Made by a program: the position numbers and the translations under genes | Notes under the pieces: generated by a model | What the model saw: the letters and a program-made list of their open reading frames with translations, nothing else | Told to the model about the DNA's origin: nothing | The model's database searches: none | Virus record (IMG/VR): IMGVR_UViG_3300030207_001146 | Span: 1 to 33,870 of that record | DNA: 33,870 nucleotides | Source: a virus | Taxonomy: Duplodnaviria; Caudoviricetes | Direction: 5' to 3' (one strand) | In this document: positions 1,659-21,300 of the stretch, piece by piece | Layout of the letters: every line of letters begins with the position of its first letter | Numbering within the stretch: the first letter of the stretch is position 1

Positions 1659-1966
1659 TATTTTATTATTATTGTTATATCAGCAGTAGAATTAGTAACT
1701 GCTTGTAAGTTGTACCTATCAGAATCAAATTTTATATTATCTTCTAAAAGCAACGAAGCTCTAGGCGGTATATTGGTTTCGTTAATAACGTATATAGTTG
1801 GTGATCCAGCGCCGTCATTTAACTGTATCTTTACCACGCAGCTATCTGAATCATCATGATTAGTAATTAAAATACTTCTAATATTCCCACTAATGCCACT
1901 GCCTTTAGTTATTAATTCTACAGGATCTGAAGTTGTATCTGATGATATATTGTTATATATTGCCAT
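1658..1966 (-). CDS. Small beta-rich hypothetical protein, probably virion-associated (102 aa)
   Basis: Intact ORF tightly packed in the operon; AT-rich leader ending TATTATGGCA; beta-strand pattern (SILITN, VKIQL, ITIIIK). Confidence 0.6.
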   Translation of the reverse strand: MAIYNNISSDTTSDPVELITKGSGISGNIRSILITNHDDSDSCVVKIQLNDGAGSPTIYVINETNIPPRASLLLEDNIKFDSDRYNLQAVTNSTADITIIIK

Positions 1967-1976
1967 AATATTAATT

Positions 1977-3305
1977 TTAAACTGCCGATATAGTTATATA
2001 ACCACCATATACTCTATCACTAGTACCTTGTGATAACTCAATAAGTATATAGTTAGTAGCATCACTTGTTACGTCTGTTATGTTTATTTCTGTACCTACG
2101 TTTCCAGTACCTTTACTAGTAACAGTTGCAGAGTCAATATTAGCCTCATAAACTATTACAGCAGGTGTGCCACTACCGTTTATTTTAACATGCGTAGCAG
2201 CATAGCCATTTGGTATTGGTAAAGAAGCGTATAGCTTAGCTGTTGAAAAAGATTCTAACCACCTATCGCCACTAGTGTCATCAATCATTGCTGGCCTACC
2301 AACATCATCTGGTATAAAATCACTAGGTAATATTTTTATTCTAGTAATAGACCCATGCCAACCAGCTCTGACAACGCCCGTTGTAGGATTAAATGTTACG
2401 TCACCATCAGGCTCAATGTTTATATGACCATCACTTCCCGCTGCATCTACAGTTTTTATCGTAGTGTTACCTTTAGTGGCTATAGATATTTTAAAATAAT
2501 CATCAAAGCTTGCTCCACCCGCTTCATATAGAATAAAATTAGAAGTACTACCACCAGTATCAAACTGCGCGTAGTAAGTACCAGCGTGTAAAAAATTTAT
2601 ACCACCATTTCTAGCAGAATCTATATTAATTAAACCATCAGCATCTAAGGTTAAAACCGCTGCAACCCCACCTGACGCATCTAAAGTAGAAAGTGTTGTT
2701 ACTCCAGCTGCTTCAACATTTATTCTAAATCTATCGTTCATCGTAGATCCGGCTGCCTCGTACATATCTAATCTACCACTATTTGCCGTAGAATAAAAAG
2801 AAGCCATTGGGTTTGATTGATAAGAACTCAATGAAGTTCCTGTTGAACCCGTTAAAGCAGTATAAAAATCTATACCACCATTTTGTGAGTTGCCCGTAGA
2901 AAGACCAGTATACAAAGCTAATCTACCACCGCGTTTATTCGTTTGGCCAGCTGTGGCGTTAGCACCTAATATACTAATTTGACCAGCATGATCATCACTA
3001 TGGGCTAGTTTTTGTATTTTAGTTTCAGTGTCGTTATCCGCACCAAGAGTTATATCATTACCGTCAAACAAGAAATTAGCTTCAGCATTCAATCCAGTTC
3101 CACCAGTTGATGTTGTAACTCTATTATCTCCAGCGTTAGTTATAGTTAGCTCACCTGATTCGGTGTCTGCTTTTACTATTTTATTATTTGAATCTAGGCC
3201 AAGATTACCTCCACTAGCAATTGTACCAGTGGAGATATCTTCTAAGTATACGTCATTACGAAATCTTGATACAAAATCGTATATTTGTTGGCCTATCCAT
3301 TTCAT
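1977..3305 (-). CDS. Putative tail fibre/spike-like structural protein (442 aa)
   Basis: Gly/Thr/Ser/Asp-rich beta sequence with an internal duplicated module; located in the structural region. Confidence 0.55.
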   Translation of the reverse strand: MKWIGQQIYDFVSRFRNDVYLEDISTGTIASGGNLGLDSNNKIVKADTESGELTITNAGDNRVTTSTGGTGLNAEANFLFDGNDITLGADNDTETKIQKLAHSDDHAGQISILGANATAGQTNKRGGRLALYTGLSTGNSQNGGIDFYTALTGSTGTSLSSYQSNPMASFYSTANSGRLDMYEAAGSTMNDRFRINVEAAGVTTLSTLDASGGVAAVLTLDADGLINIDSARNGGINFLHAGTYYAQFDTGGSTSNFILYEAGGASFDDYFKISIATKGNTTIKTVDAAGSDGHINIEPDGDVTFNPTTGVVRAGWHGSITRIKILPSDFIPDDVGRPAMIDDTSGDRWLESFSTAKLYASLPIPNGYAATHVKINGSGTPAVIVYEANIDSATVTSKGTGNVGTEINITDVTSDATNYILIELSQGTSDRVYGGYITISAV

Positions 3306-3309
3306 TTAT

Positions 3310-3489
3310 TTATATTTCAAATCCAAAATTTAAGATCATAAATCTAAATCTAGGACATGTCCCTTTTTTTTTACACTTAGCACAAGGACAAAACATTACT
3401 TCAAACATTGTCCATGTTCCTAGTCTAAAAGTTAATTCATATATTTCTTTTTTATTTCCTGCTTTCCAGGAATTAATCCAGTTTATCAT
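3310..3489 (-). CDS. Small Cys-cluster protein (59 aa), absent from the ORF track
   Basis: Manual translation: MINWINSWKAGNKKEIYELTFRLGTWTMFEVMFCPCAKCKKKGTCPRFRFMILNFGFEI*. It fills the gap, its TAA lies 4 nt before the next ATG (3305), and a promoter-like motif precedes it. Confidence 0.75.
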   Translation of the reverse strand: MINWINSWKAGNKKEIYELTFRLGTWTMFEVMFCPCAKCKKKGTCPRFRFMILNFGFEI

Positions 3490-3503
3490 ATTTTTTTTGT
3501 TTT

Positions 3504-3524
3504 GATTCTATATTATAATCACAC
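3504..3524 (-). promoter_or_regulatory. Degenerate copy of the putative phage promoter motif (GTGTGATTATAATATAGAATC)
   Basis: 15/21 match to the identical copies at 16385 and 26392, sharing the TATAATATAG core; intergenic, 14 nt upstream of the ATG at 3489. Confidence 0.5.
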
Positions 3525-3526
3525 GT

Positions 3527-6500
3527 TTATTGGTGAGCATAACATCTTTTATTCTCGTTCTCTGTTTTATTCTTGCATCTCTTACCATTCTTTTTAATAC
3601 CAGTACATCTATATTCTTTAATACCATCACCATCTCTATCCATGCCGTCAGTAAATGCAGCATGGTGGTAACATAGGAATTTTTTATCTTTAGTAGGTTG
3701 TGACATTATACTACATCTCTTACCATTTGATTTTATACCAGAGCATCTAATTGTTTTGTAACCTTCTTCTTTTAATCTTTGCTCTTCTTTCTTTTTTTCT
3801 TCTTCTTTTTCTATTTTCTTTTGTTCTGCTCTTTTTGTTTTAGCAGTTTCTTTCGCGGCTTCAAGCTCTTCATCTTCAATACCAATATCCCATCTACTCC
3901 AACCAAGAACTAATGCTACTTTTTTCCAAGTATCATGACCGCCTGTAAAAGCTTCTTCTAAGTTGTTAGCTTTATTTTGTAATCTAGCTAAAGGAATATT
4001 AGTTAAACCTTCTACGATATTAGCCCACTTTGATATCTCTGGATTTTCTATTCTAAGTCCTAATTCTTCAGAAACTCCTTTGTTATATTTTTCAGCGTAA
4101 TAAGCATTATATATTTTTCTAAGTTTACTACCAATTGGTGGAGACAAGTTTAATATTTCAAGTCCTATTTTTTCTGGTCTATCTTTACCAAAGTCAGCTT
4201 CTTGCTGTTTGTTCCATTGTATAATAGTGTTTTTAAGAGTAGATACTAGAGCTCCATATATACCCGTACCACGTAAAAAACTATCTAAAGCGCTATTAAG
4301 AGCTCTTTCTGTTTTATCATCTATTAACTCTTCATCTTCATCCCCAAACAATAAAAAAGCTAAAGCTGATTGTAAAGAAGCAAATATAATATTTTGTACA
4401 GCACCGTAGTATAATATTTTAGATACGTTAGTTTTAAAATCACCTCTACCATTTATTAAATCAACTAACGATTTTTTAGTTAATCTACCATATTGCATTG
4501 TTACGTTTTGAAAAGCTAATATAAATCTACCTAATACACTAGCTTGCTGCTGTGATATTAAATCTTCTCTTGAAGACTGCTGTGTTTCTTCTGCCACCTG
4601 CTGAAAGTCAAGCATTGCTTGATCGTGGGCTTGAGCTGGACTCATACCTTTTTTGATTAAGCTTTTATATCTGTTTCTATAAAAACTAGCACCACCAAAA
4701 GCTATAGCAAAACTATCCGCAACCTGTGTTGGTAAAAAACCTTTTTGTAATAAATATCTAATAACACCAACTGGTGTAGCTCTACCTTCTCTAAAAGTTT
4801 TTGTTAACTCAGCGGCAGATACGTCTGTCTGCAAACCAGATCTTCTTTGTTTTAGCATTGGTGAATTAAATAACATGACAAAGTCTTTCCAAAATTGAGG
4901 TTGATTGGCCCACGCTGCTGATGCTTTAAATATATTGTTATCACTCCAGTTTATAAAGTTAACAGTAGACAAAGTTTGAAGTAAAGCTGATCTTGTATTA
5001 AAAAACATAATAGAACCAATAGAAGCATTAATCCAACTAGTAAAGCCAGATACAATTCTACTTTGTCCACTAGGTCTATTACCTCCATTTTCCATACGAA
5101 ATAAAGAATCTAATAAAGCACTTGTAAAATCATTTCCGTATATAGCTCTTATTTTATTAATATTTTGTTGACTAAATATTATGTTTTTGTTATGGATAAA
5201 CTCATGTAAAAACTCTTGTCTACCTATTTTATCAACAATGTTTCTTAAATCAGTTGATATACTCTCAAGCATCCATGTTTCTGAAGGTGCCGTGTAGCCA
5301 TCTTTTCTTTTAGTTATAAGAGATAAACTATCAGCAAATGCTCTTATTTCAGGATTATTATTAACGTGATTTATTAATCTTATTTTTACTTTATCTGATA
5401 TGCCTTCTATTTCAAAACCGTTTTTATTCCATAAGTAAACACGGACAGCTGTATCAACAGTTAAACCAGTTAATGGAACGTTATTATTAAGCTTTATTTT
5501 ATGTTTCTTTTTTAAATTTTTAAAATCTTCAACCATTGTTTGCTTGTAAGTATTCCAAGCTCTAATACCTTTACCAAAAGGCGTTACTAAATTATCAACA
5601 AGATATTTAAAATCAACTTCCCCTTGTTTACCTGAAGTTATAAAATAATACAACAAACCTTTAAAATCTTCTGCTGATGGTGGTATGTAAAGGCTTTTTA
5701 AAAATCTTTTAATGTTTGTTTGTGAAGCTAACTTTCTAGCCTCTGCCGAAGAAAATACTTTACCTGCTTCGATTCCTTTTTTACGTTCTAGTATTTCGTT
5801 AAATTCTACACTTGCTTTTTCACTAAACTTTATTTTAGCTTGTACTACATCTGATTTAATATCTAATTGATCTAGCGCTTGTTTAACAGCTTCAACGTTT
5901 TGTAAGGCATCATCAACAAAATACATATCATTATATCCTTCTGCAAACTTTTGTAAAAACCATTTTGCTTTAGCGTCACCAGTACTATTAGCTAAACCAG
6001 TAATATTTTCTATAGGTATATTTAACCCTTGTGATTTTAAAAACTCGTGTATAGCTTTAGCTGATTGCTGAGGTCTAGCGGTTAAAACAAACATGTCTTT
6101 AGTACCGAACTTAGCAGCCCGCTCTTTAGCTTTGTCTAACAACGGGCCTGGAGTTCCGTCAACAACATCATTAAACTCTGAAAAATCAAACTCGCCACCT
6201 TGTTCTAATATAGCATCTCCTTGCTCTGCAAACTCAGCGGCATCTAATCTAAGCTTTTCGTAACTAGAAACAAAGTCTTCCATTTGACGAACTAACTTAC
6301 CTGGCATAGGGCTTTGCATTGTTAAGTTGTCTGTGTTGACTTCCATAAATCTATTGCCAAACATTTTTTTAAATGTAGGCTTATTATTTTGTACCGCCTC
6401 ATGATTACGCTTTACTATAGTATCTAACAACGAGCGTTCTTTTCTAGCTCTATTACGCTCTAAGGCTACATCTAATGAAGTATCTACAAATAACATACTA

Positions 6501-9500
6501 ACATCATACCCTTTAGATTTAAACTCATCTACGAGCCTCTGCATTGATTTAACACTACCTCCAGTACCGTCTACTATAACTCCGTTAGCATTACCTTGAT
6601 ACTTCATCATTTTACGTCTAGCTATTTTTCTAGCTTGAGCTCCTAACTTACCTAAAGTACTTCTTTGTTCTTTTGTTAAGTCTCTCATATCTGCAGGTAA
6701 TCCTGAGTTTTTCTTTAACCACTCTAGCGATATATCAGAGTTAACTATTTTAAAGCCCATACCTTCTAAACCAAGTTGGCTTATAACATTTCCTTTACCA
6801 CTACCAGCGCCACCAGCTAAAAATATAACTTTACGATTTGGCTTAGGCGTCCCGTCTGGATTTGGCACCGTTGCTCTTACGCCTGACTTAGTAAAACCTA
6901 ATGTATCATCAAAATCAAATGTTGACATACCTCTAGGCTTAGAACTATTTTTTACAGAGTTAACATCAGCGTCTGCTATGTTTTGATCTGTTTTTATTTT
7001 TTCACTAGATCTAAGACCGGTTGGTTTACCATCAGCTTTTATTTTATATATTTGCTCAAACGTTCTACCATCAAGGCCTATTAAAGAAGAGGGTGGTATA
7101 CCTATGCCGTCTACAGCTACTACTATAGCATTAAAATATCTTTCCCACCAATTACCATCTATAACACTAAAGTTATCATTCATTCTTCTTTGTAAACTAA
7201 AACCGCTTTCTGTTCTAGCGCTTCTTAGTTTATTATCCATAGCTTTATCTAGAGCTATTAGCGTATAGTTTTTCATTAAAAATTTATACGAGGCTTCAAA
7301 ATTAACATCAGATTTTAAAGCTGAATCTAATAAATACAAGTATGCGGCTGTTGCCGGCATAGCGTGTTCATATTCAAATCTCTTACCTGTTATTGTTTCA
7401 GAATAACCTATAAATCTAGCACCTAATTTATGCCAATGTCCAGTATCATTAGCTACTAAACCAAGATATGTAGCTATGCCTCTAGCGTTTTCAGGATTTT
7501 CTTTAATTACTTGATTAAATCTAGACCACATTTCTTCATGAATCTTAGTAACTTTATCGTTCCACCTATCTATACTACCATCTTCTATGCCCTTTTTTAT
7601 AGTCTTGTTATCTTTAAATATAGAAGAATAAGCTGATACTTTAAAATCTGATATACCTTCTATAGGTGGTCCAAAGTTTTCGTCAGGTAAATTTCTTAAG
7701 TCTCTTAACGAGTGTCTAAATTCGTTATATGATTTAGCTTCTTTAGGGTTTTTAAATACACCTGGCGATGTTTGTGACATAGAAAAATTACCATAAGCGT
7801 CGTGGCTAGGAGTGAACACAGTTCCCCAATGCTGTATGTTTAAATCTTTTATTACCTTTTTTAAATTTTTATTATTTTTGCCAGGCTCTTTTATTGCTTG
7901 ATCAATTAAAGGTTTAGCTACTTTAATATCTAAGTTATATTGTTTATAAAACTTATCTCCCATTAAAGCTATTTGTTTTTGAATTTCGTCTACAGCTATA
8001 GATCCAACGTCACCAAACCAAAACTCTCTAGGCATTATAGGAAGTAACACGTCTTTAATAAAAGTTCTAAACTTTTTTCTACCTTCGTTAGTTTTTAAAT
8101 CAAAAGCGTTACCAATGTTGTTCATATTTAAAACAACATTTTTACCATTAGCGTCAATATCTAAATAGTTGTTTACATTTAAAAACTCGTCTATTTCAAC
8201 AGTAGATTTAGAACTAAACTTTAAATCAGGATCTCTGTTTATAGCTTCGTTTATTTCTTTAACAACTTCTTGAGGCGTTATACCATCAATGCCTTTTAAA
8301 TCCATGTATTTTTCTACAAATTCTCTATTTAAAACTTCAGGAGTAGCATCTTTAGCTATAGCTATAGCAGACTCAGAAAGTATTTTTATTTTATTGTTAC
8401 CTCTAGTTCCAGATCTTTTTCCAGTTCTAGGATTTATAAGAGGCGCGTTTATAAAAGACTCCCATTGTGATGTTGTTGTTTCTAGTCTTTCGTATACTGG
8501 TACGCCTTGAGCTCTTTTCTTTTTACTTATAGTACTATTATTTAATATCTCCTCTGGTAATAGTCTTTTATTGTCAGGGTTTCTACCAGACTCGTTTCTT
8601 CCGTAAACAAAATCAGATAAAATAGTTTTATTAGTTGCTCTGCCGTGAGATTTAATAAATATCTTTTCAGGCAATTGCTTTTGCATTTGAATTAACGTTG
8701 ATATTGGTATAGATTCTAGTATAGCTTTTCTATACTTAATTAAATTAGCTGGATTTTTAAACACTCTTTCCATCGTACTGTAAAGAGTATTGGCAGAGTT
8801 TTGCTCAAATGATTTTAAAAACTCTTTAGGATTTCTAAAATCACTAGACATTATTATAGATGTTTTAACTTTTGCAAAAACCTCTGACTTACCTATATCA
8901 CTTATACCTATTTCTTTTCTAAATTTTGATTCTATATTTTTAGATTCAACGTTTCGATCTTTAACTACATCATCAAATAAATTTATCGAATCTGTTATTT
9001 TATCTAAATCGTAGGTTGTATCTTGTATTTGCACAATAGGCCCATCTTGCATTTGAGCGTCTAGACTTTTAGTACCTAATGGTGCTTTTCCAGCATTAAA
9101 TAACTTAAATACATCGTCAGCTCTAAATCTTAATTGACCTTGTATGTACCCAAAAAGACTATCGTTCTGTCTATTAGTTCCCCACAAACCTCTATTAAAT
9201 CTATCAATCATGTTTTTAAATTCAGGAGAATTTTTAACATCGTTAACCCACGTTTTTGGTATAGGTCTTACTTTATATTTCCCTCGGATCAAACCATCTA
9301 ACCAAGTATTTTTCTTTAATTCGCTTAAAGCTCTTTTAGCACCTTCGGTTTTCCACTCTTCATCAGTGTAGACCTTACTAGTTCTTGGATTTATCATTAA
9401 ACCATTAACATCGCCATCTGCTTTAGCAGACATCTTAGCGTCTTCTTTTATTTTCTTTTCTTCTTTTTTCTCTTTTTCAGCTTTCTTTCTAGCTTCAGTA

Positions 9501-12500
9501 GCTATTTTACTTTTTTTAATTTTTTCTCTAAGTTTTTGATTAACCTCACCTGCTTTAATTTTTTTAGCTAGTTCAGTTAAAAATCTAATAACATCTGTCT
9601 CTCCTTCAAAATCAAACTCAACGTCAGAGTTAGTAGCTTTTTGTGTACCTTTTGTAAATAAAAATCCAGCCATAGCCGCTATACCAGAATTTTTTTCGCT
9701 CTTTAAATCAAACTTTCCTTCAGCAACCATTTCAAAAAATGTAACAACAGCCTCATCTATTGGCATTTGGTTTTTAGTACCCCAATTAGTTCTTAAAGCT
9801 AACTGTAAATAAAGAGCTGGATTTACTTGCTGTATAAAATCAAATAGTTCTTCAACAATTTCTTTAAAAGCTTCTGGGTTTTCTGATATAGCTTCTGTTA
9901 ATATAGTGTGACCAAGCTCATGAGTTCTTGTTTCCAACCTATCATCTTTAGCCATATTTTCTTCTACTTGAAAAGGTATAAAATCAACTATATCACCGTC
10001 TTTGTTTCTTATTGCTATATTACTTCCGTGTCCACCTTTTAATATGTTTTCTATTAATTTCTTTTTATTAGCTTCAGATATATCCATTTTATTTATAGCA
10101 TCTATAGCTTCATTAACAGTTTTAAAACTTAATAAAGATTTACCTAATTTAGTTTTACCTCTTTTACTTTTATAATCTCTTCTAATCTCTTCAATATTGT
10201 ATTGTAATCTAGCCTCTTCATTTATCTGATCGTCAGTAGGATTTTGAATTTTTTTACCATCACCAAAAAGTTGTTGCCCGCTCTCAAGCCTGTTCCTAGC
10301 GTCGTTAATTAATTTTTGTTTTCTTTCGATGTCAGCGTCAGAGTTACTATTCATTAGAGCTATCCACTTGCTACCAAACTCCTTAGAGTTTCTCATTACC
10401 TCCATATAATCAGTGACTCTATTGTACTCTGCTTTTAAAATTTTTAATGCTGCATTTTTTTGTTTTCTGTTTAATTTTTTATCAGCGTGTATTGATTTAG
10501 CCTCTTGAGTTATAGCTTGCGATCTAGCGTGGTATTTTAAATACACATCAGTAAACTCTTTACTTAATTTGTTTTTTACTTTAGATTCTACTTCTTTAAG
10601 TATTTTTTGATTATTTTTACCTAAAGATTCTATCTCAGTCTCTAATGACTTTATATACTCTTTATTTACTTTAGCTTTAGGATCTTGTTTTAAGCTTCTA
10701 TTGTATTTATCTAGCTCTTGTTTTTTCTTTTTTATCTGCTTTAAATTATTTTGAAATTCAAGGTTTTGTTTAGTATCAGCCATAGCGTTCATAAACATAC
10801 CTTTTATTACAGGCGCTCCACCAAATATAACACCAAACATTCCACCTGAAAATAACGCATGGCTTAGGTTTTCAGATAAAGGTCTTCCAGTTATTAAGTT
10901 TTGAAACAAAGAAGTAAAACCTTCTGCTGCCATTTCTTGAGCACCACCTCTTAAAAACCCAGTCCAATTGTTTTTAAACCAATCATTAGCCCCTCTAAAA
11001 CCACCTTGTAATAAAGATTTTGTTCTTCCAAACGTACCAGCCCAAGATCTCTTTAACATAGGCACAGTAAATAACCTATCAAAAACAGCTTCAGCAGCGC
11101 CGTAACCAGCGCTAGTCCAAAACTTTTCATGCTCTGATGTTTTTCTACCCGTTAACATTTCTGTTTGTAACATTTGCGCGTAGTTGTCTACACCACTAGA
11201 TCCAGCAACAGCGAATAAACCAGCGCCACCACCAACTCCTAGACTAACAAATATAGGTATTTGTTGCCCTACTTCTTGCGCGAACCACTTACCAAAGTTA
11301 GTTATATTACTAAAAGCATCGTCAAAATCTATTCCTTTTTGATATCTATTTCTTTGATAAGCATTTAGTATACTGTGATCCATTATCCTACTATCTACTA
11401 CTTCTTGAAGATTAGTTCCAGCGATATTATCAAGTGTATATTGTGTTATTTTTGCACCAGCAAGTAAACCACCAGAAAATAAATCTTCAAAACCATCCAT
11501 TATCAAACCGTTCCAAAAAAGATCTAGATCGTTGTAGTTTTTCATAGCTAACTCAGCTTTATAAGGCGTCCAAGTTAAACCTTCCATGACTTTATAATTT
11601 TCATCTAGCCATTCATCTAAATCTGACTGTTCTTTTTTTAGTATAGATAAACCATTTATATACTTATCCCATATTTTTTTAGGTATTTTTTTATCTATAT
11701 CTTCAAAAGTATAATACTGCTCACCAGGTTTTATTTCGAAAATGTAATCAGGGTCTGATATTAAATTATCTATTTTTATTTTATAAGCTAATTCATTTTT
11801 AGGATTATCTACAGTACCAAATCTATCTACAATATCTCTATGTTTTTTATCAGACATAGCGTTAAAGTCAAGTAAAGCTTTAGCATCTCTATCTTCTTTT
11901 ACTCTAAACGCAGCTCTAACTTGCTCTATAGTTCCCTTAGAAAACCAACCGTCTTCTATAGAGTCCATATAATTTAACATTTTTTCGTCTATTAACTTTG
12001 GCTTTACGCCAGCTAGTAGTAAGTTCCAAGCTACGGCTTGCACTTGTTCATTAAAATCAGGGCTAAGAGAAGGATCAGGTAGGTTGTTTTTATGAGCCAT
12101 TGCTAATAAAAAATTTTCAGCTTGCTCTAGAGTTTCAGAGTGAGGTACGTAAAATCCTCCATTATGAGTTCTGTAGCCATCAAACAAGCCTGGCTTCATT
12201 ATCATTATTTTTTCTCCACTAGGATCTAAGATTAATTCACCATTTTCATCTTTCTTGTAAATACTAAACTTCATTTTAGCGTCTATAACTTCTTGATCTG
12301 ATATGTATAGAGCGCCTTGTTCCCCAGTATCTGGGTTTATTTTCATCTCTTGTTTTCTAATTTCTTGTATACTAGCTTCTAATCTTTCGTTTGTTTTATT
12401 ATATTTTTCATCATCTGTTAAATTTTGATCTAAAAACATTTGAAGCTTGCTAGAGTTTTCGTCAATAGATTTTTTATAATAATAATCTTTTTTTTGATCA

Positions 12501-13813
12501 CTTGTTGTAAGGCCTGGTAGTAAAAAATATAATGGATCAAATCCCATGTCTATGCCAAAATAACCTTTGCCTTCTCCAAACATTGATTCAAATTTTTTAT
12601 ACTCCTGGTCATAGTTTATTTTAGTGTCTATTATTACGGACTTTCCAGTACCTTTGTGTATTACTTTAACTCTTCTAAAATCATGTATTAGTCCTAATTG
12701 AGAAGCAGCGCCAGGTCCCATATTACCTTCCCAACCAGTACCTGTTAATGCGTCTAATGTTGCTCCAGCTATTTCATGTACGCTATCCATATCTGGATGT
12801 AGTATTTGAAATTCTAAAACATCTTCTCCATAATAAGTTTGCATTTGTCTAATAAAAGATTCAGCATTATTTTCATATAAAGAAGTATCACCAACATCAA
12901 CAAAACTATCTTTACCATTAGCAACGCGCTTTACTTTTTTTCCTTTTTCAGTATAAAGATCTCTATAATTTAAAATGTCACCTGTAGGATTACCATCTTC
13001 ATCTAATACCGAGGTACTCCAAAGTTGAGCGTTGTAATCGTAATCTAAATAATTTGTATCAGGATCTCCGTAATCAAATTTTGCAAAACTCCCTTCTTGT
13101 CCATTAGTGAGTATATAATTTAGTCTATTAATAGTTCCTTCGTCTTCTACGAATTTATTATTGTTACGCTTAAATGCCCACTGAAAATTAGGGTCATCAC
13201 CTCCCATATAAATATAGTCATCATAAAACATATAACCTTCATACGTGTCTTCAATAAATAGTCTAGAGTTTCTTATATCTCTATCGCTCATTTGCTCTAT
13301 GCTGTTAAGCTCGTCAATAATAGCTTGATCTAATTTAATTTCAAAATCTCCGCCAGGATCATGCTTATACTCCCATTCACCATCTTCATTTTTTGTAAAA
13401 TCACCGTAAACAAGGCTGTCGTGTTTAAACATATTATGACCTTTTGATACGTTTTTTGGATTAACCCTTTTAGTATCTCTAAGATTATTGTCTTTAGCTT
13501 CTATTTCTTTTTGTTTGATATTTTCGTCTGATTCGACTGGAGTAGTTTCTCCTTCAGGTGTTTCTACTTTAGGAGTTTCTAGCTTTATAGCTGTGAGGTT
13601 TTTATTTTTTAGCTCTTCTTGAAAAGCCTCTTCGTGTTCCGCATCTACGTTTACTTGCCTACCATCGGATAGGCTATATTTATTTTCTTTATCTTGTTCT
13701 TGAACGAGAGTAGCAGTTAAACCAGCCTCTTCCAAAGCTTTAAAAAAAGCTTCTTCATGCTCTGGTGAAACCGTTTTGGTTCTACCATCAGATAGTAAAT
13801 ATTTTCTTTCCAT
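3527..13813 (-). CDS. Giant multidomain (polyvalent-type) internal virion/ejection protein (3428 aa)
   Basis: Follows two ejection-like genes. Visible motifs: Gly-rich hydrophobic segments, HELGH (aa 1298), EYEHAMP (His at aa 2150), HAD motifs DFDDT/LTAR/K/VDD, Walker A GGAGSGKG, two C-terminal C-x9-C...C-x2-H units. Confidence 0.75.
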   Translation of the reverse strand: MERKYLLSDGRTKTVSPEHEEAFFKALEEAGLTATLVQEQDKENKYSLSDGRQVNVDAEHEEAFQEELKNKNLTAIKLETPKVETPEGETTPVESDENIKQKEIEAKDNNLRDTKRVNPKNVSKGHNMFKHDSLVYGDFTKNEDGEWEYKHDPGGDFEIKLDQAIIDELNSIEQMSDRDIRNSRLFIEDTYEGYMFYDDYIYMGGDDPNFQWAFKRNNNKFVEDEGTINRLNYILTNGQEGSFAKFDYGDPDTNYLDYDYNAQLWSTSVLDEDGNPTGDILNYRDLYTEKGKKVKRVANGKDSFVDVGDTSLYENNAESFIRQMQTYYGEDVLEFQILHPDMDSVHEIAGATLDALTGTGWEGNMGPGAASQLGLIHDFRRVKVIHKGTGKSVIIDTKINYDQEYKKFESMFGEGKGYFGIDMGFDPLYFLLPGLTTSDQKKDYYYKKSIDENSSKLQMFLDQNLTDDEKYNKTNERLEASIQEIRKQEMKINPDTGEQGALYISDQEVIDAKMKFSIYKKDENGELILDPSGEKIMIMKPGLFDGYRTHNGGFYVPHSETLEQAENFLLAMAHKNNLPDPSLSPDFNEQVQAVAWNLLLAGVKPKLIDEKMLNYMDSIEDGWFSKGTIEQVRAAFRVKEDRDAKALLDFNAMSDKKHRDIVDRFGTVDNPKNELAYKIKIDNLISDPDYIFEIKPGEQYYTFEDIDKKIPKKIWDKYINGLSILKKEQSDLDEWLDENYKVMEGLTWTPYKAELAMKNYNDLDLFWNGLIMDGFEDLFSGGLLAGAKITQYTLDNIAGTNLQEVVDSRIMDHSILNAYQRNRYQKGIDFDDAFSNITNFGKWFAQEVGQQIPIFVSLGVGGGAGLFAVAGSSGVDNYAQMLQTEMLTGRKTSEHEKFWTSAGYGAAEAVFDRLFTVPMLKRSWAGTFGRTKSLLQGGFRGANDWFKNNWTGFLRGGAQEMAAEGFTSLFQNLITGRPLSENLSHALFSGGMFGVIFGGAPVIKGMFMNAMADTKQNLEFQNNLKQIKKKKQELDKYNRSLKQDPKAKVNKEYIKSLETEIESLGKNNQKILKEVESKVKNKLSKEFTDVYLKYHARSQAITQEAKSIHADKKLNRKQKNAALKILKAEYNRVTDYMEVMRNSKEFGSKWIALMNSNSDADIERKQKLINDARNRLESGQQLFGDGKKIQNPTDDQINEEARLQYNIEEIRRDYKSKRGKTKLGKSLLSFKTVNEAIDAINKMDISEANKKKLIENILKGGHGSNIAIRNKDGDIVDFIPFQVEENMAKDDRLETRTHELGHTILTEAISENPEAFKEIVEELFDFIQQVNPALYLQLALRTNWGTKNQMPIDEAVVTFFEMVAEGKFDLKSEKNSGIAAMAGFLFTKGTQKATNSDVEFDFEGETDVIRFLTELAKKIKAGEVNQKLREKIKKSKIATEARKKAEKEKKEEKKIKEDAKMSAKADGDVNGLMINPRTSKVYTDEEWKTEGAKRALSELKKNTWLDGLIRGKYKVRPIPKTWVNDVKNSPEFKNMIDRFNRGLWGTNRQNDSLFGYIQGQLRFRADDVFKLFNAGKAPLGTKSLDAQMQDGPIVQIQDTTYDLDKITDSINLFDDVVKDRNVESKNIESKFRKEIGISDIGKSEVFAKVKTSIIMSSDFRNPKEFLKSFEQNSANTLYSTMERVFKNPANLIKYRKAILESIPISTLIQMQKQLPEKIFIKSHGRATNKTILSDFVYGRNESGRNPDNKRLLPEEILNNSTISKKKRAQGVPVYERLETTTSQWESFINAPLINPRTGKRSGTRGNNKIKILSESAIAIAKDATPEVLNREFVEKYMDLKGIDGITPQEVVKEINEAINRDPDLKFSSKSTVEIDEFLNVNNYLDIDANGKNVVLNMNNIGNAFDLKTNEGRKKFRTFIKDVLLPIMPREFWFGDVGSIAVDEIQKQIALMGDKFYKQYNLDIKVAKPLIDQAIKEPGKNNKNLKKVIKDLNIQHWGTVFTPSHDAYGNFSMSQTSPGVFKNPKEAKSYNEFRHSLRDLRNLPDENFGPPIEGISDFKVSAYSSIFKDNKTIKKGIEDGSIDRWNDKVTKIHEEMWSRFNQVIKENPENARGIATYLGLVANDTGHWHKLGARFIGYSETITGKRFEYEHAMPATAAYLYLLDSALKSDVNFEASYKFLMKNYTLIALDKAMDNKLRSARTESGFSLQRRMNDNFSVIDGNWWERYFNAIVVAVDGIGIPPSSLIGLDGRTFEQIYKIKADGKPTGLRSSEKIKTDQNIADADVNSVKNSSKPRGMSTFDFDDTLGFTKSGVRATVPNPDGTPKPNRKVIFLAGGAGSGKGNVISQLGLEGMGFKIVNSDISLEWLKKNSGLPADMRDLTKEQRSTLGKLGAQARKIARRKMMKYQGNANGVIVDGTGGSVKSMQRLVDEFKSKGYDVSMLFVDTSLDVALERNRARKERSLLDTIVKRNHEAVQNNKPTFKKMFGNRFMEVNTDNLTMQSPMPGKLVRQMEDFVSSYEKLRLDAAEFAEQGDAILEQGGEFDFSEFNDVVDGTPGPLLDKAKERAAKFGTKDMFVLTARPQQSAKAIHEFLKSQGLNIPIENITGLANSTGDAKAKWFLQKFAEGYNDMYFVDDALQNVEAVKQALDQLDIKSDVVQAKIKFSEKASVEFNEILERKKGIEAGKVFSSAEARKLASQTNIKRFLKSLYIPPSAEDFKGLLYYFITSGKQGEVDFKYLVDNLVTPFGKGIRAWNTYKQTMVEDFKNLKKKHKIKLNNNVPLTGLTVDTAVRVYLWNKNGFEIEGISDKVKIRLINHVNNNPEIRAFADSLSLITKRKDGYTAPSETWMLESISTDLRNIVDKIGRQEFLHEFIHNKNIIFSQQNINKIRAIYGNDFTSALLDSLFRMENGGNRPSGQSRIVSGFTSWINASIGSIMFFNTRSALLQTLSTVNFINWSDNNIFKASAAWANQPQFWKDFVMLFNSPMLKQRRSGLQTDVSAAELTKTFREGRATPVGVIRYLLQKGFLPTQVADSFAIAFGGASFYRNRYKSLIKKGMSPAQAHDQAMLDFQQVAEETQQSSREDLISQQQASVLGRFILAFQNVTMQYGRLTKKSLVDLINGRGDFKTNVSKILYYGAVQNIIFASLQSALAFLLFGDEDEELIDDKTERALNSALDSFLRGTGIYGALVSTLKNTIIQWNKQQEADFGKDRPEKIGLEILNLSPPIGSKLRKIYNAYYAEKYNKGVSEELGLRIENPEISKWANIVEGLTNIPLARLQNKANNLEEAFTGGHDTWKKVALVLGWSRWDIGIEDEELEAAKETAKTKRAEQKKIEKEEEKKKEEQRLKEEGYKTIRCSGIKSNGKRCSIMSQPTKDKKFLCYHHAAFTDGMDRDGDGIKEYRCTGIKKNGKRCKNKTENENKRCYAHQ

Positions 13814-13845: not shown

Positions 13846-15687
13846 TTACAGAGAGTCTCCTGTTGTAAAATTTGTGTCTATATTTTTACCAGGAAAATTA
13901 GCCTGTATAAATGCATTCATTTCTGCCCTTGAATCTGATTCTGCACCAGCGCCATAATAATCATATCCAAATTCTTTTTTCTTACCGTTAGGTGCTGTTA
14001 TTATAAGTTTACCCTCGCCTTTCGCAATTACGCTAAAACCGTACCGCCCAAGTTTTTCAGCGTTACCAGCCGCTAAATCTTCAGCCCCGTCATCAAAATA
14101 CATATGTGTTGCTCCGCTTTGAGCGTAAGATGGCACTATAGTAGGTATGCTTTCTTCACCAGATCTAACGCTGTAAATATTATCAAGAACTTGTTGTTGC
14201 GTTCCTTTAAAACCGTATTTTGTAGTACCAAAAGTTAACTCTTGCTCTGGGCTCTCAAAAAGATCATCAAAAAACTTCATATCTGGAGAGCTCTTTAAAG
14301 TTGTTAAGTAGTTATCTTTATATTGAGTAGAGCTTGTGACTTCGGCGTTATCATCACCAGCATCACCAGTATCACCAGTATCACCGGTATCGCCAGTATC
14401 ACTAGTGTCGCTAGTATCGCTAGTGTCGCTAGTATCGCTAGTATCGCTAGTATCATCTGTGCCGCCGCCGCCACCTTCTTTTTTATTATCTTTCTTACTG
14501 CTATCAGGTAAACTATTATTGTGATTTTGCTCTAAGCCTTTAGTTATATATTCAGCTAATAGATTTTTAGCTAAATCATCGTCACCTTTTATAGCTTTCA
14601 TTATCCTTTTAATATCTCTTTTAGTTATTTTACCATTATCAGTTGGATCTAGTCTTTCTATTATTTTTTTATCTATACCCAAGTTTTGATAAGTTCCGTT
14701 TTGTAAAGCTTCTGTTAAGTCGTCTGTAAAGTTTCTACCAGCAAACATTGGGTCTTCCATTAATGACTTTAAATCCCCAGTTTCAATTATATTATTTCTA
14801 ACATTTTGAAACATCTGATTATAATTAAACTGAGCATTGTCTCCAGGTTTTATGTTAGTTGCTTTTTCTACAACAGTGTCTAGCAAACCTGTTATTGTAT
14901 CTTTACTTTTACTATCTACTTTTTTACTATCAACTAAAGATTGTATTTCGTCGGTTGTTTTAAAAATTTCGGTTTCAAAAGGAACACTATTACCTACTTT
15001 AGCCCCTCTCTTGTCTATATCATCTTGTTGATATGGATGAAACTCTTCTAACTTATTTCCTGTTTTTTTACCTGACCACATAAAGTTAGTCCATTTAGAA
15101 AAGTCCATACCATGAAGCTTAACGTTCATGTCTCTGTTAGCTTTAAATGCCTCGTCAAATGTCATGCCAGCATATTTATTAGCGTCTGGATTTGTTATCA
15201 TATATCCAGTTTTACCATCTTTTTGTATAAGCTCTTTGTCACCATTAACAATATCAACAATATCATCAGCGTTGTCACCAAGTTTATTTTTAGGATCATC
15301 TCCTAGATCACCACCTGTAATACCACCAGCTATATCTTTTTTTAAATTTTCATTTTTTTCTAGCCCTTTTTTCATTTCAAGAATATCTCTCTTAGCTAGC
15401 ATTTTATCTTTTTTGTTTAAATAAACATATCCGAATCTTTTCTTTTTTAATTTTTTATACATAGCGCTATACTCAGCTTCAGACATACCAGGATCTCTTT
15501 CTAGCTCAGAGTTCATTATTCTCATTAAATTTTGATTAAACTCTATGTTGTTTCTTTTGATAGTCTTAGCTGTGCCTTCGGCAACGTATGCTGCAGCTTT
15601 AGTTAACTCTGTAGTAACAGCTAACTTGCCACCTCCTTTTGTTTGAGCAACCGCCGCTGCCCCTCGTATTAATTGTGAATCTGCCAT
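13846..15687 (-). CDS. Putative internal virion/ejection protein (613 aa)
   Basis: Lies between the pilot-like gene and the giant gene, as in podoviral three-gene ejection cassettes; Ala/Gly-rich N-terminus, charged helical body, acidic tripeptide-repeat linker. Confidence 0.5.
   Translation of the reverse strand: MADSQLIRGAAAVAQTKGGGKLAVTTELTKAAAYVAEGTAKTIKRNNIEFNQNLMRIMNSELERDPGMSEAEYSAMYKKLKKKRFGYVYLNKKDKMLAKRDILEMKKGLEKNENLKKDIAGGITGGDLGDDPKNKLGDNADDIVDIVNGDKELIQKDGKTGYMITNPDANKYAGMTFDEAFKANRDMNVKLHGMDFSKWTNFMWSGKKTGNKLEEFHPYQQDDIDKRGAKVGNSVPFETEIFKTTDEIQSLVDSKKVDSKSKDTITGLLDTVVEKATNIKPGDNAQFNYNQMFQNVRNNIIETGDLKSLMEDPMFAGRNFTDDLTEALQNGTYQNLGIDKKIIERLDPTDNGKITKRDIKRIMKAIKGDDDLAKNLLAEYITKGLEQNHNNSLPDSSKKDNKKEGGGGGTDDTSDTSDTSDTSDTSDTSDTGDTGDTGDTGDAGDDNAEVTSSTQYKDNYLTTLKSSPDMKFFDDLFESPEQELTFGTTKYGFKGTQQQVLDNIYSVRSGEESIPTIVPSYAQSGATHMYFDDGAEDLAAGNAEKLGRYGFSVIAKGEGKLIITAPNGKKKEFGYDYYGAGAESDSRAEMNAFIQANFPGKNIDTNFTTGDSL
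14356..14454 (-). repeat. In-frame 9-bp tandem repeat, 11 units, encoding (DTS)6(DTG)4DAG
   Basis: Direct read of + strand units such as gctagtatc and accagtatc. Confidence 0.95.
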
Positions 15688-16374
15688 TTATTCGTCTTCT
15701 TTTAAATCTTCATATAACTTCTTGTAGTCTGTTTGATCACCAAAACCAGCTACCATATCAGCCGCTCCTTGTATTCCTCCAGATATAGCTGCCATCTTAG
15801 CCTGCTCTGCTGCGGCTATTCTTTGTTGTGCTCCAGCTAATTCCTGTTGTGACATTCCTAATAGTGTAGACTGCTTTTCTCTCTCCATGTTTCTAGACAG
15901 TATCTCTCCTTGTCTTTCCATAGATTGTATTTGACTAGCTTGAGCTGCCGCCGCTCTTTGATTAGCAGCTTCTTGCTGTCCTATACTAGCTGACGATTGT
16001 TGTGATGCTATCTGTCCTTGCTGCGCTAGTGACTGAGCTAGAGCAGCTATACCACTACCACCAGCCGCACCTCTTAACTCACCCATTATATTAGCTTGAC
16101 TTTGTGCAAACTGTTGTGATTGAAATTGAGCCTGCTGTTGATTTATAGTTAAATCTTCCATAGTATTTTCCATATTAAGATATGGGTTACTTGTATCAAG
16201 ATTAGCATATATATCTTTAAGCCTTTTCATTTCTGCTTCTTTTTTCTTAGCCTCTCTTTGTGCTTGCTTTTTAGCTTGATTAGCTTTTACAGCCCCAAAA
16301 ATACTCAGGCCTGTCGAGACCGCTGCCCCAACTATAGGTACAATTTTAAGTGGACTATTAGAATTTTCTGCCAT
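15688..16374 (-). CDS. Putative DNA pilot/ejection protein (228 aa)
   Basis: N-terminal Gly/Ala hydrophobic helix (IVPIVGAAVSTGLSIFGAVKA) followed by Gln/Ala-rich coiled coil, as in small podoviral ejection proteins; first gene after a promoter-like motif. Confidence 0.55.
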   Translation of the reverse strand: MAENSNSPLKIVPIVGAAVSTGLSIFGAVKANQAKKQAQREAKKKEAEMKRLKDIYANLDTSNPYLNMENTMEDLTINQQQAQFQSQQFAQSQANIMGELRGAAGGSGIAALAQSLAQQGQIASQQSSASIGQQEAANQRAAAAQASQIQSMERQGEILSRNMEREKQSTLLGMSQQELAGAQQRIAAAEQAKMAAISGGIQGAADMVAGFGDQTDYKKLYEDLKEDE

Positions 16375-18364: not shown

Positions 18365-21300
18365 TTATGCTGGTGGATAATTTGTTTGATTTATTACTGA
18401 AACAAGTTGACCTTGAGCGCCGTCACTATCAGTAACTGTTATTGTATAAGTACCAGGGCCTCCTATGCCATTTTGATTAGAAGGAATTGTCGTGTACGCT
18501 TCAGTGAAAACAAGACCACTTTTACCCCATTGAGAAGCAACTGGATTGCTTGTTGAATCATAACCATTTGGCCCTTGAAGATTAAAAACGTATGGAGGTT
18601 GACCACCGCTGGCTTGAAAGAAAAAGAAGCCATACTGAGTAACATTTGGCAAAAAATTAATATTTATATTAAGCGTGCTAACCACAACTTCTTCCTCTGT
18701 TTGAGTTGATGGAGTGGTAGTACCTTCATCAACAGGATTTTCTAATGGAAAGCCTATACCTTGTAAAGATAATTCACTAGGATCAATATTACCTATAGCA
18801 GTTTGTATTCCACTTATTTTATTAAACCATTTGTTTTCTTTATTTATAAATTCAAATAACTTGCCATCTTGCATGTCAGTGCTAAATAAATCTACATACC
18901 AACCAGCATTTGCTTGTAAATTATAGTACTCACCATCGCCATCATTAGCGCCAGCGTAAGTTTCTATAACATTACCATCATCATCAGTATGAGTTGTTAT
19001 TTGACTTATAGCCGCTTTAGAACCTTCGTAAATTACAGTTTTAAATGATTTTACTATACTAGCTTCGTCATTGAATACCACTTCTATTTCTGAATCAACA
19101 AAGTCATCATCATAAAATGTATTTCTATTAACATCTTCATCGTAATGCTCATATATTTTATATGTGTTTGAAGTTATATATTTTCCGTTTACAGAAACTC
19201 CAGATGAAGGGACAAAAGATTTAAAACTAACCCAACCTTTACTACCTTCGTTAAATGAAACTGTTATCGGTTTTATTGCCGGGGTGGTTACACAACCACT
19301 ATCAGGGCACGTTACTGAAGCTACTTGATATTCCTCAGCTATATTTAAAGTTAAGTTATACTCACCGTTAACTACATCGAAGGTTCCAACTAAGTCATCA
19401 CAAAGTTTTAAGTGCTCTCTAAAATAAGATTTCATGCCTACATTAGATATAGGTGTTAAACCATCTTGTGATAATCTTAATACAGCGCCCCTTTGCTTGT
19501 CCGAAAAATATAATCTATATTGGTCATGAGCTAGTGACTCAGGGTTTTTTGATATACCGTAATCCCCAGCAAATGGTATAGCTTGTCCTAAAGTTTTACT
19601 TGTAGCAGTTAAGTTTGTATTACCATCAGCATTAAATACAGCGTCTTTATTTGCTAACACTCTTAAAACTTTATCTTCACAAAAAGTAATTAAGTCTGTA
19701 TCTCTAGTCTTTAAAGCTTGTATAGAGCCATATGCTGGATTTAAATTTTTAGTAATTTTTTCAGCCATATTAAACTGATTAAGCTCATTAACGCTTGATG
19801 TAGAATTATACAAACCTGAGTGTATTAATCCACTACCTATTTTTTCTTGACCGTATTCTAAAAACGTTGAAGAAACTTTTATTCCATTATTTATTGTTGG
19901 TGCATTAAAATCATCACGTATTCTATCTGATTCTATTCCATTACCAAATGAATAACAATTAAACCATCTTAATTCTGTTGGATAGTTCCAAACTTCTTTA
20001 TCTATTTTGTATATGCCAGATGTTTCTAGAAACTGTATAGATAGGCCAAGAATATTAGAAACTAAAGCTGGTTTATTTAAAGTTATTGTTGGAGGATCAA
20101 GCTGAATACTCTCTACAAAAGTTCCTGAATCTATGTTTCCATCTGATACTACTTGAAACCCAGGGCCTACATTAACTCCTTCTAAATCACTAGTAGTTAG
20201 TTGAGTGTTGTTGCCAAGAATACTACAAGTTAAGGTAGTTACATCTGCGTCATATGCTACGTTAACGCCAGAAAAGCTAGTTGATTTATAATGACCTAAT
20301 ATTTTAGATCTAGTAGTCGTGCCATCTTTATGTATAAATTTGATTTCATCATTTATTGCCAAAACACCAGTTAAATTAGTTAGCACGCCATTATCATCTT
20401 GTTGTATTTTTACGCCGTCATCACTAAGATTTTCTATAGCATAACTAATATTAGGTAGCAATACCGGTTGCGTTATAGTTTGATCACCAGATATAATGCT
20501 TCTAACAGCTCGTATTTCACTAGCTTTTTTTATGTCTGTAGAAGCTTTAGTAAATAATTGTATATTGTCGTTATTTAGCTCTATAGGTATTGCGCTACTA
20601 GCTTCATAATAAATATCTAAACCAACATCTTCTTTAGGCTCTGTTTCCCAACAAGCTGAATTTGTTATAATACTATCATCTTGTAAATCTTCATCAGGCA
20701 TTCTTTCTAATATCTCTATAGTAAAACTACCCATACCATTATGTGACACTTCGCCCCTTGGGTCCCAAACAGATATATCTATACCAGATCCAACAATAGC
20801 ACCACCATCTTGATCAAGTTTTGCAAATCTAGTTATTATAGAATGTCTAGGATTTAAAGGGTTTATATTAGCGCCAAGTCCATTACCAAGATTTTTAGCG
20901 TCAATATTTACTTGGCCTTCATATGGAGTGTTTATGCCACTATAATCTTCGCCAAATATATTAGTATTTATATCTTGTTGTATATGTGAAACTCTATAAA
21001 CAACTTGATTAGGGTCTGCTGTAAACCTAAATAATGTACCCTCTGTTTGCATTAAAGATTTAAATATAGAGTCTTTACCTGGAGCAAATCCACCCACCGT
21101 ACCTACGCTCGAAAAAGTAAGCTGCCCTCTATTATCTTGCATATAAGCTGGTCCTTGTGCTAAACCCACGGGCTTCCAGTTAGGCAATATACCTTGATCC
21201 CAAGGAAAACTAGCGGTAGACGTGTAGTCTGGAAAACCTTCGTGCTTTCCAAATACAGTAAACTGCGCTGGGTCACTACCATAATAAGTGTCAGAGCCAA

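Follow-up and report, generated by a model that had tools for sequence, protein, structure and literature searches.

A giant putative ejection protein of a podovirus of the marine flavobacterial type, with a zincin-like motif, a sigma-domain-2-like module and exchangeable enzyme modules

Phage polyvalent proteins are described in the main text of Iyer et al. 2017 (PMC5512222) as large products of late virion genes, in which a peptidase hub with an HExxH+E signature is joined to unrelated enzymes in variable architectures, zeta-like kinases being among the known cargoes. In the ejection apparatus of T7, DEV and N4, a three-gene layout is described in the available text of PMC13434306. The largest podovirus ejection protein is poorly understood; in N4-like and crAss-like phages it carries a polymerase. 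We analyzed a 33.9-kb virus record (IMGVR_UViG_3300030207_001146; 33,870 nucleotides, 61% complete), called the window below, which carries a single giant open reading frame (ORF) of 3428 amino acids (aa) at 3527..13813 on the minus strand, the last of three putative ejection genes. The original prediction had read this ORF as an injected multi-effector polyprotein at the locus where crAss-like phages encode a virion RNA polymerase (RNAP). The single ORF was confirmed, as was its place as third ejection protein by synteny with cultured relatives. The injected multi-effector reading held for the polyvalent architecture, the module swapping, the slot, the lack of an RNAP motif, the zincin (as a motif) and the sigma domain 2, HAD and kinase folds, but not for the crAss-like identity.

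The slot of the giant gene is analogous, not orthologous, to the virion RNAP slot of crAss-like phages. In five cultured-relative records the equivalent giant gene closes the structural module after genes of ~200-300 aa and ~450-640 aa, with one additional small gene in phi19:3, which is the layout known from T7, DEV and N4. The slot-3 proteins of Elemovirus, Pervagoviridae (phi38:1 gp101), Pachyviridae (phi19:3 gp129) and Maribacter phage Panino resemble the giant protein in synteny and in a homologous Gly-rich segment, and elemoE gp18 also has the zincin, whereas profiles of the sigma-like, HNH-like, HAD, kinase and C-terminal modules matched none of these cultured proteins. GenBank labels these orthologues 'structural protein' by similarity, and gp101 is not mentioned in the available part of PMC13288928. 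With N4 gp50 and gp65-67 of crAss-like phi14:2, the giant protein has in common a very large size, the slot that follows two smaller ejection genes, a membrane-type N-terminal part, a zincin motif and proposed processing, but it has no RNAP motif and, in the modelled parts, no RNAP fold, bears a sigma-domain-2-like module mid-chain and has a C-terminal domain matching no solved chain; its phage is neither crAss-like nor N4-like.

By its testable features the giant protein is a phage polyvalent protein and not a crAss or N4 virion polymerase: it is encoded among late virion genes, its domain content varies among relatives, the zincin, HAD and kinase motifs are intact in one chain, and its C-terminal fold is common to entries labelled ART-PolyVal, MuF-C or LPD. 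It differs in that the main text of PMC5512222 contains neither 'sigma' nor 'phosphatase' nor a HAD domain and, in the sections consulted, describes no repeated linker motif. The literature searched, which covered main texts, yielded no counterpart of the nested HAD-kinase, the linker code or the sigma-like cargo described below; HAD or sigma domains could still appear in the separate domain files of PMC5512222. The giant protein is very probably ejected cargo, and we consider it probable that, among the ejection proteins of a marine flavobacterial podovirus, it is the third and the largest, a membrane-anchored polyvalent scaffold whose predicted zinc protease would free cargo modules. A constant scaffold (Gly-rich membrane segment, zincin motif and helical C-terminal domain) would carry exchangeable cargo modules, so that, in an abundant marine family, the slot would be filled by exchangeable enzymes together with a sigma-domain-2-like unit. 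The features of the giant ORF are as follows.

13571..13807, minus strand: two N-terminal repeats of ~38 aa (aa 3-40 and 44-81), from the sequence, poorly shared
10784..11287, minus strand: Gly-rich, partly hydrophobic segment (aa 843-1010), common to the slot-3 proteins of cultured phages
9554..10030, minus strand: zincin-like metallopeptidase (aa 1262-1420; H1298, E1299, H1302, E1354), from motif conservation
9422..9436, minus strand: linker 1, KMSAK (aa 1460-1464), sequence motif
8951..9412, minus strand: Sigma-70 domain-2-like module (confident fold aa 1465-1576), predicted fold with weak sequence support
8222..8761, minus strand: conserved helical module (aa 1685-1864), in one linker-bounded unit with the sigma-like domain and matching no assigned fold
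8207..8221, minus strand: linker 2, KFSSK (aa 1865-1869), sequence motif
6992..7696, minus strand: optional module (E2149-H2150-x-x-P, D2193, R2225), beta-beta-alpha order, His-Me finger-like, family unconfirmed
6938..6952, minus strand: linker 3, KNSSK (aa 2288-2292), sequence motif
6860..6931, minus strand: HAD phosphatase, N-terminal part (motif I, D2300-F-D2302-D-T2304), from motif conservation
6299..6838, minus strand: Pnk/zeta-like P-loop kinase lying within the HAD hairpin (GGAGSGKG 2334, D2360, DGT 2415, RNxxRxxR lid), from motifs and profiles
5834..6256, minus strand: HAD phosphatase, C-terminal part (T2578-A-R2580, K2615, D2634-D2635), from motifs and profiles
5816..5830, minus strand: linker 4, KFSEK (aa 2662-2666), sequence motif
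3839..5815, minus strand: C-terminal domain (aa 2667-3325), all-helical in the predicted structure and the least variable part
3530..3751, minus strand: two CCCH knuckles, DUF5763-like (aa 3355-3428), profile match

Most of this order had been predicted. The N-terminal repeats (two copies), the Gly-rich hydrophobic segments, the HExxH zincin at aa 1298 (by motif, with E1354 as the downstream glutamate), the HAD phosphatase with its nested kinase (aa ~2295-2655), the helical C-terminal domain and the two knuckles were all recovered, and the sigma-like stretch (aa ~1490-1590) was supported by fold and weakly by sequence. At the HNH-like motif near aa 2150 a conserved E-H-x-x-P was found at 2149, and the HNH label was left unconfirmed by family and structure searches. 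For comparison, a search of IMG/VR with the HAD-kinase region returned 278 related stretches, of which the best 80 were fetched, and a profile of the sigma-like region matched 279 clusters (50% identity, E<=0.001), with the best 150 returned. The pooled set held 154 proteins of >=2000 aa and excluded cultured giants, near-duplicate loci and one split gene. Both samples were biased by their queries, so that module frequencies are not population estimates.

The original prediction had overlooked a linker, K-[FMN]-S-x-K, that recurs four times (1460, 1865, 2288 and 2662), every copy at a module border. Shuffled sequences contained a mean of 0.36 copies and reached four in 0/500; in 145 relatives FS[KRE] was found in 34/55, 33/122, 81/145 and 29/100 border windows (the last window being longer than the others) versus 201/5800 random 25-residue windows, and [KQ]FS[KR] was 19-fold denser downstream of the zincin and fell outside versus inside domain cores at 139:12, counts that are not probabilities since the pattern was picked after being seen and the relatives share ancestry. 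K-[FMNY]-S-x-K was absent from the cultured slot-3 proteins compared. The DNA at the four sites had little in common beyond the codons, which themselves differed, and the flanks were unrelated, which favors a signal read in the protein, for instance a cleavage site. This linker is the best hint of polyprotein processing, and the chances that the zincin cleaves the giant protein there appear evenly balanced. Cleavage would release aa ~1462-1866, ~1867-2289, ~2290-2663 and ~2664-3428. The linker thereby names exact candidate cut sites, and autoprocessing of polyvalent proteins, long proposed and unproven in the literature consulted, becomes directly testable. The giant protein could instead stay whole, with linkers that are flexible hinges or recombination joints for module exchange and a zincin that has a regulatory role or targets the cell wall or host proteins. 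The N4 virion RNAP (vRNAP) has an HExxH subdomain yet is packaged unprocessed according to the available text of PMC5512222 and PMC13434306, the metallopeptidase of phi24B is assigned to peptidoglycan by its authors (10.64898/2026.04.10.717836, available text), and a ~470-aa insert found in 10 loci, which often has the motif on either side, would also suit cassette exchange. We nevertheless regard an uncleaved protein as unlikely: the linkers share amino acids, but their differing codons and unrelated flanks offer too little for homologous recombination, the motif is concentrated downstream of the zincin, and, in the predicted topology, a zincin placed after the membrane segment would be on the cytoplasmic side, away from the wall.

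The zincin residues H1298, E1299, H1302 and E1354 were invariant in 57 aligned sequences, and HExxH was kept in 149/150 matches to the zincin profile. Judged by its sequence, the giant protein has the zincin metallopeptidase pattern given for polyvalent proteins in the available text of PMC5512222, namely strands, an HExxH helix and a downstream glutamate helix; the PDB gave no significant match to the zincin. A second HExxH at aa 2870 occurred only in the window protein and its closest relative and was treated as chance. The Gly-rich segment contained two moderately hydrophobic 19-residue windows, aa 852-870 (Kyte-Doolittle, KD, 1.88) and aa 985-1003 (KD 1.45), and E/E/E/N/G residues invariant across 21 aligned sequences. 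Its profile, built without cultured phages, matched the slot proteins of phi38:1, elemoE, phi19:3 and Panino (E 2e-29 to 3.5e-15) and did not match the Manatee Spring giant; in relative L044 the segment had a weak LPD14 match (E 0.0003, below cut-off). The segment is likely an inner-membrane anchor. In the proposed sequence of events, the giant protein would be packaged in the head and would follow the two smaller, upstream-encoded proteins on ejection, and its Gly-rich segment would seat in the inner membrane, leaving the zincin and everything after it in the cytoplasm.

The modelled sigma-like module, common to the 279 clusters, has the predicted four-helix arrangement and helical fold of Sigma-70 domain 2, with 72-95 residues aligned to sigma entries at a root-mean-square deviation of 3.0-4.4 A. 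Unlike Sigma-70 factors, it shows 4-13% identity to them, falls below every family cut-off and is embedded in a 3428-aa chain; no match to a region-4 helix-turn-helix was listed for aa 1630-1865, a region not folded alone. A flexible stretch after domain 2 recalls what we take to be sigma region 3.2. The unit may bind host RNAP, with a chance slightly short of even. Docking there would hijack the host enzyme in place of the polymerase that N4 and crAss-like phages supply from the same slot.

A repeat search in related genomes revealed a promoter-like element, ACAAA-N4-ATACGA-N9-GATAAT, in the non-structural region, on the same strand as the genes there, with a fixed 9-nt spacer and often 4-9 nt before an ATG. 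It was present in 22/34 related genomes (including G001, G003 and G004) and 14/18 near-complete ones; the genomes mapped held 5, 6 and 11 copies versus 0-0.25 in shuffles, and a reversed-motif control gave 4 matches in total. GenBank phages had it once in 8, inside a gene and with a 10-nt spacer. It was absent from the window, which lacks the non-structural region. GATAAT, if a -10 box, would give leaderless messages, and the upstream part of the element, on the other strand, is presumably one base off the host TAnnTTTG box. A free sigma-70-family gene of ~252 aa was also found in 5/5 complete relatives.

G025:23343-37163 and G003:55768-58761, one strand: examples of the promoter-like element, from the repeat search
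G001:4233-4472, plus strand; G003:48918-49061, minus strand; G004:64950-65189, minus strand; G025:35127-35348, plus strand; G032:63520-63753, plus strand: free sigma-70-family gene in complete relatives

These observations do not point to the injected unit in particular: ATACGA-N9-GATAAT does not track the sigma-like module and is abundant where the module was undetected (L007, 11 copies; L069, 10; L076, 6; L073, 5). Such a distribution would suit a decoy or blocker, a sigma-like domain that occupies host RNAP or titrates an anti-sigma factor, with recognition of phage promoters left to host sigma or a separate phage sigma. The free sigma gene is consistent with a decoy, as is the recognition of domain 2 alone, with the region-4 helix-turn-helix unmatched. 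However, most motif copies in G001, G003 and G004 precede the free gene on its own strand (in two of these genomes the order is taken across the contig ends), so that transcription from them must be begun by another factor. In the other genomes the module could also have diverged beyond detection, and the stretch that we take to resemble region 3.2 counts against a decoy, which we hold to be rather unlikely. A free sigma gene beside the sigma-like module in some relatives' giant proteins makes a two-sigma cascade possible. The full proposal is that, in a widespread marine flavobacterial podovirus clade, a self-cleaving injected polyprotein frees a virion-borne sigma factor, which redirects host RNAP to phage-specific ACAAA-N4-ATACGA-N9-GATAAT promoters at infection onset, together with an end-healing kinase-phosphatase and a nuclease. 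We regard this combination as doubtful as a whole; if true, it would be a third way of starting phage transcription, besides virion polymerases and host-sigma promoters, and the giant protein is a candidate for sigma-factor delivery from the virion.

DFDxD is the hallmark of the crAss RNAP according to the available text of 10.1101/2020.03.07.982082. The original prediction saw no RNAP catalytic motif, and we likewise found no RNAP DFDxD/DxDGD motif in the giant protein, the only look-alike, DFDDT, being HAD motif I. The motif was not conserved in 73 long relatives (two stray matches, at unrelated places) or in the giants of the locus (three with strays), PF00623 matched in 0/5 complete relatives, and models of aa 1465-2275 and 2667-3325 showed no polymerase fold. 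In the face of these results, a highly diverged virion RNAP hidden in the giant protein, as in crAss-like and N4-like phages, is very improbable. Such an enzyme would agree with the slot, size and zincin of the N4 vRNAP and the crAss gp65-67 block (available text of PMC13434306 and 10.1101/2020.03.07.982082), and residues 90-840 and 1010-1260 lie outside the modelled parts, but the unmodelled N-terminal part is unconserved and in some relatives leaves <200 residues before the Gly-rich segment.

In the HAD phosphatase, D2300, D2302, T2304, T2578, R2580, K2615 and D2635 were invariant in 36 sequences. HAD motifs I, II and IV were present in 130-133/136 proteins and the kinase motifs in 64-65/65; the HAD passed the DUF2608 cut-off and sits among viral HAD clusters in the Atlas. 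The HAD was uninterrupted in 14 loci, and elsewhere the kinase lay between two strands of its hairpin. Kinase position was nested in 61/65, unscored in 3/65 and tandem in 1/65, namely L069 (10001-10585), where the kinase directly precedes an uninterrupted HAD in the order of T4 Pnkp. Like T4 Pnkp (PseT), the unit pairs a P-loop kinase with lid arginines and a DxDxT HAD phosphatase, all catalytic motifs being intact; unlike T4 Pnkp, with its N-terminal, tandem kinase, it has an optional kinase inside the phosphatase hairpin and lies within a predicted virion polyprotein. The kinase passed AAA_33 (42.5 bits) and Zeta_toxin (34.7 bits versus a 22.3 cut-off). Its PDB matches were all weak, the top entry (E 0.008, ERNxxRxxR lid aligned) being what we take to be the Clostridium Pnkp kinase domain, followed by mammalian Pnkp and PezT (E 0.05). 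Kinase and HAD halves each weakly matched PHROG polynucleotide-kinase families, and HAD motif II bears an Arg that is presumably that of Pnkp phosphatases. The nearest outside relatives of the kinase were stand-alone kinases of 220-230 aa, e.g. in HTVC008M and Melnitz.

Because a kinase and a HAD phosphatase together make up the Pnkp pair (PMC7824862, available text), nucleic-acid end-healing is our lead reading, held tentatively at just under an even chance. The unit would restore 3'-OH/5'-phosphate ends on nucleic acids broken by host defenses. PF09414 ligase-family genes, which may be DNA ligases, were found in 2/5 complete relatives (G001:66137-66613 and G004:983-1498), and PF09511 in 0/5, in a search where no positive control matched. 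A zeta-toxin-like or nucleotide kinase with a HAD small-molecule nucleotidase, targeting wall precursors or signaling nucleotides and not nucleic-acid ends, is somewhat unlikely. It would account for the Zeta_toxin and PezT matches, for zeta-like kinases in polyvalent proteins (PMC5512222, main text) and for the 67/125 HAD-bearing proteins without kinase on a tree of C-terminal domains, but AAA_33 outscored Zeta_toxin, and the top PDB entry, the PHROG matches and the motif II Arg all point to Pnkp.

Cassette-like swapping among homologs, which the original prediction had proposed to look for, was evident, with modules gained and lost among relatives: on the C-terminal-domain tree the kinase needs 14 changes, the HAD 9 and the HNH-like module 35, a figure inflated by detection limits. 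In the HNH-like module, E2149 and H2150 were invariant in 54 aligned sequences and kept in 74/92 of a wider set. In the model H2150 closes a strand, followed by two helices, a second strand and a helix bearing D2193, an order that we take to be that of His-Me fingers. The module, which was not folded alone, had no family, structure or profile match; as a candidate nuclease it has about an even chance. At least 8 other sequence clusters, with no named PHROG match, fill its position before the HAD (L012, L024, L047, L075, L072, L052, L026). The ~470-aa insert, between the HAD and the C-terminal domain (L035:11141-12640, L037, L038, L046, L051, L052, L063, L064, L066 and L067), has conserved KWLATS, NPWC[IL] and YWDRMD motifs and no family match. 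In L058 the giant gene appears as two ORFs (1947-8819 and 8930-13570), broken in the variable middle before the HAD, a natural split or an assembly error.

The C-terminal domain was modelled as all-helical (predicted local distance difference test, pLDDT, 78) and was present in 72/73 long proteins recruited through another module. It matched no solved structure. Its fold matched 62 predicted viral proteins, many of which have ART-PolyVal, MuF-C or LPD labels, and therefore the modelled domain looks like a common end piece of phage polyvalent proteins; it might handle the entering DNA. The knuckles matched DUF5763 at E 0.004 in the window protein and 2e-10 in relative L035, and a similar tail was found in 91/154 pooled proteins. 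Between the two knuckles lies a DxDGDG motif (window 3620-3640, aa 3392-3397), conserved in several relatives, which presumably resembles a calcium-binding loop. The N-terminal repeat had 11 matches among giant ORFs, of which two duplicate a single contig.

The window holds one minus-strand structural module with terminase, portal, capsid, adaptor and tail genes, two smaller genes and the giant ORF.

15688..16374, minus strand: 228-aa gene, Ala/Gln/Gly-rich, in the first ejection slot, by analogy that of the outer-membrane channel; resembles elemo gp20 weakly (E 0.17)
13846..15687, minus strand: 613-aa gene, second ejection slot, periplasmic-tunnel position by analogy and synteny, no sequence support

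Capsid and portal searches returned 85 and 87 phage records, of which 40 were viewed per search and the remainder judged by host tally. Flavobacterium elemo phages, Cellulophaga phages (Calle, phi38:1, phi19:3, phi13:2, phi18:3, phi46:3), Gundel, Panino and the Manatee Spring genome dominated. Affinities among the matches listed were to Elemovirus, Callevirus, Pervagoviridae, Pachyviridae, Panino and Manatee Spring, with no crAss-like phages; the predicted crAss-like identity thus gave way to a phage that is likely, from its genes, of the marine flavobacterial podovirus type. A 2145-aa tail protein (window 18365-24802) weakly matched the crAss muzzle C-terminal domain (E 1.5e-5, below cut-off), and it exceeds its counterparts in the cultured relatives viewed by 600-1200 aa. 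The composition of the 228-aa protein resembles that of its slot counterparts, and the 613-aa protein contains a TSD/TGD tripeptide repeat tract near residues 410-445.
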